This document shows positions 18,168 to 18,979 of a stretch of 64,000 nt of DNA, in pieces (positions within the stretch are counted from its first letter, which is position 1; every line of letters starts with the position of its first letter). A model generated the notes under the pieces. The model did no database searches. It saw only the letters and a program-made list of their open reading frames with translations, and was not told where the DNA came from. The stretch lies in assembly GCA_934098505.1 (NCBI GenBank), contig CAKOOR010000001.1, forward strand, positions 259,027 to 323,026, written 5' to 3'. Source of the stretch: an uncultured Bacilli bacterium (lineage in GTDB: Bacteria; Bacillota_I; Bacilli_A; RF39; UBA660). The translations under genes and the position numbers were made by a program.

Positions 18168-18572
18168 TCATAGAATAGTTAAATATAGAACACCAATGCA
18201 AGCAAAACAACACACTGATTTGAAGTAATCTAACGAACAATTAACTGTATTTTCAAGATAAAAGCCATTAGATTTCTGATTTTTAAATACTGATTCTATA
18301 CCGCCAAAGTGATAACTGTAATCTTTAATGGCACGTTTAGAATTTTCATTTGTGACAAGAATCCAAGGATCATCGGTATCAATGGAATAACTTATGACAA
18401 TGTTGGTAATATACTTATCTTCTGCAAATTCAATTTCGTTGTAAGATTTGGCATGATATTTGTATTTTGAAAATTCATTTAGCCATTTCCAAATTTTATG
18501 ACCTTCTTTTTTGTCGAAGTGCAGTGCTTTGATGTTTTTCTTTAGGTGACGTTTTTTCGACAAATGCGACAA
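18168..18572 (-). pseudogene. IS4-family (DDE) transposase C-terminal remnant
   Basis: The translation contains YSYHFGGIESVFKNQK, matching the IS4 C-terminal signature Y-x2-(R/H)-(W/F)-x-IE-x2-FK-x2-K, in a 134-aa ORF. No N-terminal DDE region is present, so it is truncated. Confidence 0.45.
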
Positions 18573-18616
18573 CTAGTTATATAGGTTACTCAAGAGCACT
18601 TAACTAACAAGCTAGT

Positions 18617-18979
18617 TTGCTTTGCAACAATAAAGATGATTTTTTCACTGTTGAGAACAATGCTGGCAATAAAGCATTAACCTATCTGATTGGATTAATA
18701 GCTTATGATGAATTAATGTACGCTGGAATAAACTATCGAAAAGCAAATAAATATTCTTATGTTTCATCTAATATTTTATACTGGACTATGAGTCCTTCAC
18801 AATTTTATAAAGATAATGGTTTAGAAATTGGTACTCTTAATTATGGAGAAAGAATAATGTTTAATAGTGTCGATTATGGAAAATATGTAAAACCTGTCAT
18901 AAATTTAAAGTCTGATGTTAAAATATCTGGTGGTATTGGAACAGTAAATAATCCATACATGGTAGATACTAATAATTAA
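18617..18979 (+). pseudogene. Truncated paralogue of the 3' module of the surface protein gene (silent cassette or remnant)
   Basis: Its 120-aa translation (…NKALTYLIGLIAYDELMYAG…YWTMSPS…KPVINLKSDVKISGGIGTVNNPYMVD) aligns at about 50% identity with the last ~110 aa of 15778..17796. It has native AT-rich composition. There is no convincing RBS and it lacks the N-terminal 550 aa. Confidence 0.5.

Follow-up and report, generated by a model that had tools for sequence, protein, structure and literature searches.

A probable two-step insertion-sequence scar behind a surface-protein gene of an uncultured gut Bacilli bacterium

Introduction

Silent-cassette antigenic variation is known from pilE/pilS of Neisseria and vlsE/vls of Borrelia, and inverton-type switches from fimS of Escherichia coli, mpl of Mycoplasma penetrans and the gut invertons; heterospecific spacers are known from Cre-lox. 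For promoter invertons and tyrosine-recombinase switches, PMC11892184 was used as the source for comparison. For diversity-generating retroelements (DGRs), the targets Mtd of a Bordetella phage and TvpA of Treponema were used (PMC3240598, PMC4891356, PMC7826257), and a survey of DGRs found at most two template repeats (TRs) per element (PMC6642488). Here, we analyzed positions 18168-18979 of a 64,000-nucleotide stretch of DNA (the window) from an uncultured Bacilli bacterium, which lie behind a gene for a surface protein of 672 amino acids (aa). A preliminary description had recognized there the remnant of an IS4-type transposase, the enzyme of an insertion sequence (IS), followed by a promoterless copy of the C-terminal module of the surface protein, which was read either as the displaced 3' end of the gene or as a silent donor cassette. 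Comparison with related loci indicates that the stretch is very probably a non-functional scar left by two successive steps, which is inherited, decays neutrally and stands outside the machinery that varies the locus.

Results

The stretch and the gene in front of it consist of three features. GeneA denotes the 672-aa surface-protein gene and geneB a different paralog, from which the fragment derives.

15778..17796, plus strand: geneA, intact gene of a membrane-anchored surface protein, 672 aa (open reading frame, homologs)
17798..18545, minus strand: relic of an IS4-like IS, comprising its outer end and transposase residues 200-384/385 (nucleotide match to the copy in L005, tblastn, family assignment)
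18546..18979, plus strand: relic of the geneB 3' end, ~145 codons (identity to L007, three-way junction alignment, independent lesions, dN/dS)

The fragment had been described as starting at 18617 and as about 50% identical to residues ~560-672 of the surface protein. A residual open reading frame (ORF) of 120 aa indeed spans 18617-18979 with a TTG start, but it is only what remains behind an in-frame TAA at 18605-18607. The homology to geneA begins upstream of this stop at ~18546, as tblastn continued the alignment past the TAA to ~18545 (residue ~527). The similarity itself was confirmed by BLASTP, albeit at a lower figure: 52/117 residues are identical (44%, E = 3e-28) over residues 558-672 of the 672-aa product, and the shared residues include YWTMSPS and PVINLKSDVKISGGIGTVNNPY. 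The native, AT-rich composition reported for the fragment was reproduced (28.8% GC; window 28.1%), as was the lack of a promoter, since no Shine-Dalgarno sequence precedes the TTG at 18617 and promoter-like matches at the fragment were no commoner than in shuffled sequence.

The parent of the fragment was found in L007 (related loci are given L numbers), which belongs to a metagenome-assembled genome (MAG) of an uncultured Bacilli bacterium and was the one contig with an intact geneB in the genome scan. The fragment is ~90% identical at the nucleotide level to L007 2789-3307, the last ~145 codons of a 648-aa geneB, and the homology begins exactly at the junction with the IS relic. The body of geneB in L007 is only ~67-76% identical to geneA at the nucleotide level. 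On its 3' side, the intact geneB is followed by a unit with the lox-like core ATCCA (see below), and this unit also stands behind the relic in L006, L008 and L010. The intact geneB and this synteny identify the fragment as the tail of a distinct paralog and not as the 3' end of geneA itself. Among the 120 closest homologs of the 672-aa protein, none carried a fragment-like C-terminus (38-47% identity to the fragment), and geneB of L007 was the sole full-length gene found with a fragment-type tail. In the databases, the fragment has only short close relatives, and the longer among them extend across the antisense strand of the IS relic and therefore contain the same junction. A three-way alignment placed this junction at ~18545/18546, with a few bases of ambiguous microhomology.

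The IS relic was likewise found to differ in extent from what had been described. The minus-strand ORF 18168-18572 exists, but the relic reaches from 17798 to 18545. Positions 17798-18530 are 77% identical at the nucleotide level to a full IS copy in L005 (1604-2338), and a tblastn search with a reconstructed transposase as query read residues 200-384/385 between 18545 and 17992, where two in-frame stops and one frameshift interrupt the coding part; 17992 to 17798 is non-coding. As had been recognized, the N-terminal half of the transposase is missing, and with it the regions of the first two catalytic aspartates (D1, D2), so that the relic has neither the intact ORF nor the complete catalytic triad of an active element. 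The IS4 C-terminal signature is present as described, although the conserved arginine of its YSYRFGGIE motif is a histidine in the window. The ORF 18168-18572 itself had no Pfam, NCBIfam or PHROG match, scans of all three ORFs against these collections being equally unhelpful, and a tblastn search of plasmids with the transposase fragment yielded no match. Longer homologs of the relic match PF01609 DDE_Tnp_1 (P0224: E 6e-8, 33.1 bits against a cut-off of 23), and the full transposase rebuilt from L005 matches NF033591 'IS4 family transposase' over positions 13-318/340 (E 1e-19), with a score of 70.6 bits that lies under the curated cut-off of 152. These matches support the earlier assignment as IS4-type at the superfamily level and suggest a distant member of the family. 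The ORF has 108 homologs, most of them on contigs of 1-2 kb, as expected of a repeated element.

The two sides of the relic are unequal. Its outer end begins one base past the TGA of geneA, whereas its other side (~18545/18546) is transposase interior, not an IS end, and is joined to the surface-protein fragment. In the full L005 copy, the ends show an inverted match of ~10 nt (GACAGTTTTT); only one IS end survives in the window. IS-free paralogs end in ...DTNN-TAA-taaatgggg, while every IS-associated gene ends in ...PYVI(D/N)-TGA followed by the IS end, which places the IS in the last few codons of geneA. GeneA keeps its complete C-terminal module and is clipped after ...PYVID where the IS-free paralogs read TNN and a stop; its last three codons were probably replaced through the IS insertion.

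Two further observations concern the IS as such. In L005, a 51-nt direct repeat (797-847 and 2290-2340; 88%), and no clear inverted repeats, encloses the full copy, and the TAG of the IS end serves there as the stop codon of the gene. The two IS copies, diverged to 77% nucleotide identity, in the window (17794-17812) and in L005 lie in two different family genes, in both cases within the final codons, and the element may prefer the 3' ends of family genes as targets.

The end of the variable region of geneA (see below), the IS relic and the geneB tail together form a block (window ~17708-19047) that was encountered elsewhere at 88-94% identity. L006, L008, L009, L012 and 11 metagenome loci carry this block, L010 and L011 carry it twice, and it occurs behind several different paralogs. 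The geneB homology starts at the identical base (L007 2789) in 8/8 loci from genomes and the European Nucleotide Archive (ENA) and in 11/11 metagenome loci. In relatives, tandem arrays are formed in the order recombinase, 651/672, IS relic, fragment, 658/662, IS relic, fragment, 652 and so on. This recurrence is explained by a single event in an ancestor, after which units of gene plus block were duplicated. The lesions, on the other hand, differ from copy to copy: the window has the TAA, L012 a 13-nt deletion, L010b a TGA and many replacements, and the copy of Mycoplasma sp. CAG:956 (L008) a 29-nt deletion that takes out YWTMSPS, both deletions shifting the frame. The ratio of nonsynonymous to synonymous substitution rates (dN/dS) between fragments scattered between 0.23 and 2.3, based on 2-7 synonymous changes (dS 0.02-0.08), which is uninformative alone and would be compatible with relaxed constraint over a short divergence.

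We infer the following order of steps and a neutral decay thereafter. In an ancestor of this uncultured gut Bacilli group, an IS4-like element would have inserted at the extreme 3' end of geneA within a tandem array of paralogs, whereby ~3 codons of geneA were lost and the frame came to stop at the IS boundary. An illegitimate deletion, involving a few bases of microhomology, would then have fused transposase codon 200 to codon ~503 of the downstream geneB, with loss of the N-terminal half of the transposase, the intervening DNA and ~78% of geneB. Afterwards the IS half and the geneB tail would have been multiplied together with the gene in front of them, through unequal crossing-over or tandem duplication, while decaying neutrally. 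The actual variation of the locus would be brought about by inversion of the promoter region at lox-like sites and by DGR mutagenesis of the C-terminal loop region.

Several points weigh against such a scar. Many lineages retain an open frame of 110-145 codons, and dN/dS is below 1 for several pairs of fragments (0.23-0.6), on the 2-7 synonymous changes that separate these close lineages. Intact geneB was found once only, and the protein-database search gave just short proteins; a single intact geneB together with its absence from a large protein database means that the negative database evidence is incomplete. In addition, the identity of the block stays at 88-94% in all arrays seen, which could reflect a non-coding role as terminator or spacer. 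A retained function of this kind, in which the block terminates or insulates between individually switched neighbor genes, was considered very unlikely. It would fit with the occurrence of the block behind different paralogs and with one element in the IS end:

17941..17954, plus strand: terminator-like hairpin in the IS end, between the stop codon of geneA and the fragment (consensus scan only; weak)

However, the stem of this hairpin is only 5 bp long, IS-free paralogs do without the block, and the short divergence times (dS 0.02-0.08) explain its retention in a decaying scar.

Improbable to a similar degree is that the fragment was the original tail of geneA, pushed away by IS-associated foreign DNA that supplied a new tail. 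The fragment is co-oriented with geneA and lies directly behind the IS relic, the expressed tail is GC-rich, and N- and C-terminal identities are discordant across the homologs of the 672-aa protein, from which it follows that the family is mosaic. This displacement, as proposed in the preliminary description, is contradicted by the parent, which is a different paralog and intact in L007, by the absence of the fragment tail from close homologs of the 672-aa protein (maximum 47%) and by the arrangement of the IS, whose end adjoins the geneA stop whereas its interior adjoins the fragment. Moreover, in the region of overlap (residues 527-600 of the 672-aa protein), gene and fragment are only ~54-70% identical at the nucleotide level and thus do not stem from a recent duplication. 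Finally, the GC-rich patch is not imported but is a DGR variable region (VR):

17610..17722, plus strand: DGR VR of geneA, from GTCCCCTTCG to GGTGCCCGCCCAG (GC content, allele variability, TR comparison)

The GC content of the VR is 57% against 28% for the window. Window and L006 are 95-98% identical across the module except for 17604-17753 (72%; 50-54% GC in both). A DGR origin was doubted at first, as third codon positions also vary between window and L006; it was reinstated by the pattern of NNY codons in 12 alleles and by invariant columns free of adenine, and then by L024. WTMSPS and GARPVINLK enclose 30 codons, whose variation among the 12 alleles falls mainly on the first two codon positions (entropies of 0.97, 0.86 and 0.62 for positions 1, 2 and 3), and the flanks show the reverse. 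No adenine was present in the 20 invariant VR columns (chance about 4e-4), and the variable columns are approximately equimolar. The VR of ~113 nt ends in the GC-rich GGTGCCCGCCC, which resembles an initiation of mutagenic homing (IMH) sequence. Given this signature and the low GC content of the IS relic (31.4%), the GC anomaly is not IS-borne DNA, and the view of the GC-rich tail of the 672-aa protein as foreign was abandoned.

A DGR was encountered in L024, in which P0020, a family member of 74% identity, is encoded directly 3' of bAvd (PF22296) and a reverse transcriptase (RT; RVT_1, PF00078). Its elements are:

L024 8014-9529: bAvd and RT (profile matches)
L024 ~13264-13376, 13679-13791, 14093-14205 and 14529-14641: TR-like units 1-4
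L024 ~14953-15065, 16594-16706 and 18174-18286: TR-like units 5-7

These seven units are distinct and bounded by GTCCCCTTCG and GGTGCCCGCCCAG; five of them form a 415-bp tandem array (13259-15268). In comparison with the TR at L024 13779, 13/25 adenines but only 3/88 other bases are changed in the VR of P0020 (p = 5e-8). Every position of this VR is accounted for if two TRs contributed, and it looks like a mosaic of both. The VR in the window was compared with the same TR, which is heterologous to it, and here 15/25 adenines and 7/88 other bases are changed (p = 1.5e-7). In both pairs VR and TR thus differ almost only at TR adenines. The two proteins behave differently within their 90% clusters: the VRs of the P0020 cluster are all different among the 15 members listed, whereas the cluster of the window protein has one VR in 12/12 members, despite 2-25 changes elsewhere among the 11 non-representatives, and shows no ongoing VR diversification. 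Neither TR nor RT was found in the window or in the other loci of its species, nor in the viral contigs and phage genomes in which they were also sought. GeneA is therefore taken to be a DGR target with a VR that is currently frozen in the window lineage. As a separate observation, ATTCCTACTACGATAGA follows 6/7 of the TR-like units in L024 (the 14193 unit was left out of the comparison).

Very improbable is the silent donor cassette of the preliminary description, that is a reservoir from which the expressed C-terminus is replaced by recombination, conversion or deletion in the manner of Neisseria pilS. The family is under diversifying pressure, as inverton, DGR and paralog arrays indicate, and the fragment is retained in many lineages in gene-like orientation. 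The nucleotide alignment of gene and fragment that had been called for did reveal similarity (54% global identity; best local stretches 65 nt at 72-74%), but no tract for recombination, the longest exact match being 10 nt. There is a single cassette per gene and no bank, the copies carry independent frameshifts and stops, and no recombinase site adjoins, as a scan of the window detected no lox-like site near the fragment. No recombinant was seen in ~20 loci or the protein search; specifically, a 672-type gene with a fragment-type tail was absent from 19 related loci and from the protein search, both of which covered assemblies, not reads. The expressed VR, moreover, is invariant in all 12 cluster members. 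Shared tracts, recombinant alleles and in-frame upkeep, by which a cassette would be known, are hence all lacking, and even a role as a rarely used conversion donor is extremely unlikely. The fragment was also considered as a DGR template repeat and rejected, because it mismatches at bases other than A along its whole length and lacks the boundary motifs of a TR. That the 120-aa ORF is an independent small gene, expressed as a free C-terminal domain protein, is scarcely credible, for although gene callers predict it (P0232 on 50 contigs, and further 120-aa genes), its TTG start has no Shine-Dalgarno sequence, copies carry lesions, starts vary by lineage to give ORFs of 110-179 aa, some through the IS-relic antisense, and neither a signal peptide nor a membrane anchor is present.

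Upstream of geneA, a second element of variation was detected:

15417..15696, no strand: invertible element 5' of geneA, two 25-bp lox-like sites around an interior of ~230 bp

The sites have the form TTCATAGAGT-N5-ACTCTATGAA and lie at 15417-15441 (core ATATA) and 15672-15696 (core TATAT); they were the only matches to this pattern in the window. The arms are complementary at 26/26 positions, forming a 26-nt perfect inverted repeat, and the right end is located 82 nt from the ATG of geneA. Left and right cores were related as reverse complements in all pairs seen, and the cores (ATATA, ATCTA, ATCCA, ATTAA, ATTCA and AACAA) differ between neighboring genes. A site pair was present at every full family gene examined in recombinase-adjacent arrays or in the two loci of the window species; none was present at the DGR-adjacent gene of L024 or at geneB of L007. 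The interior is reversed in L026, the locus of a 666-aa paralog apparently from the same species as the window (98.9% over 280 nt as reverse complement), and in L017 and L021 as compared with L006, L009, L019 and L023 (96% over 239 nt). These opposite orientations among contigs demonstrate that the inversion is real, and the element thus combines the inverted repeats with the two orientations of an inverton. In L006 (4402-5469) and L009-L011, the arrays are immediately preceded by a gene for a tyrosine recombinase (PF00589 / Phage_int_SAM_3), while a scan of 10 window ORFs detected no recombinase gene. A promoter-consensus scan in the AT-rich inverton DNA did not separate ON from OFF. At L016 ~600-650, the interior is precisely deleted and a single lox-like site (core ATCTA) precedes the gene, an arrangement that may represent a locked state.

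Identical lox-like sites (core ATATA; window ~15318-15778 versus L003, L025 and L026) are shared between two loci of the window species. On the left, either a 242-aa gene (A) or a Tad-like locus (B) is found, and on the right either the 672-aa gene with the relic and GatD (X) or the 666-aa paralog with Fic (Y). A-X occurs in the window, L001, L002 and L004 and B-Y in L025; the reciprocal configurations B-X (L003) and A-Y (L026) are both present in sample ERZ27287295. As judged from these contigs, such an arrangement implies a large inversion of the chromosome across the upstream region that both loci share. A pair of inverted repeats of ~190 bp (15080-15271 and 19103-19299; 76.5% identity) also flanks this part of the window; the copies begin directly past the stop codons of the 242-aa gene and GatD, and each contains two terminator-like hairpins. 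The repeats were tested as ends of a mobile unit and rejected, as they belong to two independent flanking contexts that are paired differently elsewhere.

The 672-aa protein has 3017 homologs and no Pfam match. Its C-terminal module of ~270 aa has a wide distribution and is found together with Flg_new, DUF285 and Big_3_5. No match was obtained when a profile of the family was searched against sequences of the PDB, and an AlphaFold2 model of the 672-aa protein from a 30-sequence alignment had a mean predicted local distance difference test (pLDDT) score of 52.7, with values below 50 in the C-terminal module. Family genes lie repeatedly just 3' of a Tad/type-IV-pilus-like cluster with a T2SSE ATPase, a ParA/CpaE-like protein and a faint RcpC match (L003 14693-19004, L024 292-6017, L025 5201-9512), and the family might consist of pilus-associated adhesins. 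Directly 5' of the intact geneB, the ORF L007 214-1284 joins the N-terminal domain of the family to a glycine-rich end, and its distant relative P0278 matches ALK_LTK_GRD; the N-terminal domain thus appears to be combined with differing C-terminal modules.

The remainder of the window contains housekeeping genes of spore-forming Bacillota (S20, SpoIIP, MurT/GatD, SMC, RNase III and a T-box leader). The T-box leader (99 bits) is located at 4874-5060 upstream of a 1062-aa ORF (5014-8202). Among named relatives, the locus is closest to an 'uncultured Bacilli bacterium' MAG and to 'Mycoplasma sp. CAG:956'.

Discussion

The stretch behind geneA would be an ordinary pseudogene relic with little at stake, and the adjacent DGR target and inverton are of more interest. 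Two lessons can nevertheless be drawn from it: the tempting picture of a silent cassette would here be the scar of an IS-mediated deletion, and a compositional anomaly beside an IS need not be imported DNA, as a patch of 57% GC in a genome of 28% GC is the footprint of adenine-specific DGR mutagenesis. The combination of DGR and inverton on one gene offers a testable model for surface-protein variation in uncultured gut Bacilli (the Mycoplasma sp. CAG:956 group), and the surface-protein family concerned is large and unannotated. We tentatively propose, as a possibility that falls somewhat short of probable, that the family stacks three layers of variation, namely core-coded invertons, DGR mutagenesis of the C-terminal loop region, which in one relative is supplied by at least 7 distinct template repeats, and reciprocal inversion between two loci with identical cores. 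The pair-specific lox-like cores and the tandem array of template repeats are possibly undescribed design features. If so, pair-specific cores would confine recombination to the own switch of each gene and prevent deletions in tandem arrays, and if they are functional and undescribed, core-coded insulation and a multi-template DGR would be what is novel in this locus.

Compared with known systems, the relic resembles IS4-family elements and their decayed remnants in its DDE_Tnp_1-type transposase with a C-terminal Y..R...E......K-like signature, in being an internally truncated and frameshifted copy, as is common in bacterial genomes, and in the multi-copy behavior suggested by homologs on short, broken contigs. 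It differs in the spacing of this signature, which we read as Y(2)R(4)E(6)K where Y(2)R(3)E(6)K is canonical, in the score of the full copy, which stays under the NCBIfam IS4 cut-off (70.6 versus 152 bits), and in the 51-nt direct repeat that flanks the L005 copy. With pilE/pilS and vlsE/vls, the fragment shares that it is a promoterless partial copy of a variable C-terminal part near an expressed surface-protein gene; unlike those cassettes, it lacks tracts that could seed conversion (maximum 10 nt), is single and inactivated, and has no known recombinants among the assemblies searched.

The 5' region of geneA is like fimS, mpl and the gut invertons, since inverted sites enclose ~230-240 bp in front of a surface-protein gene, both orientations occur, and a PF00589 tyrosine recombinase gene adjoins the arrays in relatives. 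It is unlike them in that the sites are lox-like 10+5+10 palindromes with cores that match within a pair but are specific to each neighbor, and in that the window itself has no recombinase gene. GeneA, as opposed to the fragment, is comparable to DGR targets such as Mtd and TvpA: it has a C-terminal VR of ~113 nt with an IMH-like end, NNY codons and adenine-specific differences between TR and VR, and bAvd and RT adjoin a family member in L024. It departs from them in its frozen VR, in the absence of RT and TR from the 64-kb window and in a target domain without a Pfam model. In the number of templates, finally, L024 with its 7 TR-like units goes beyond the surveyed DGRs (PMC6642488).

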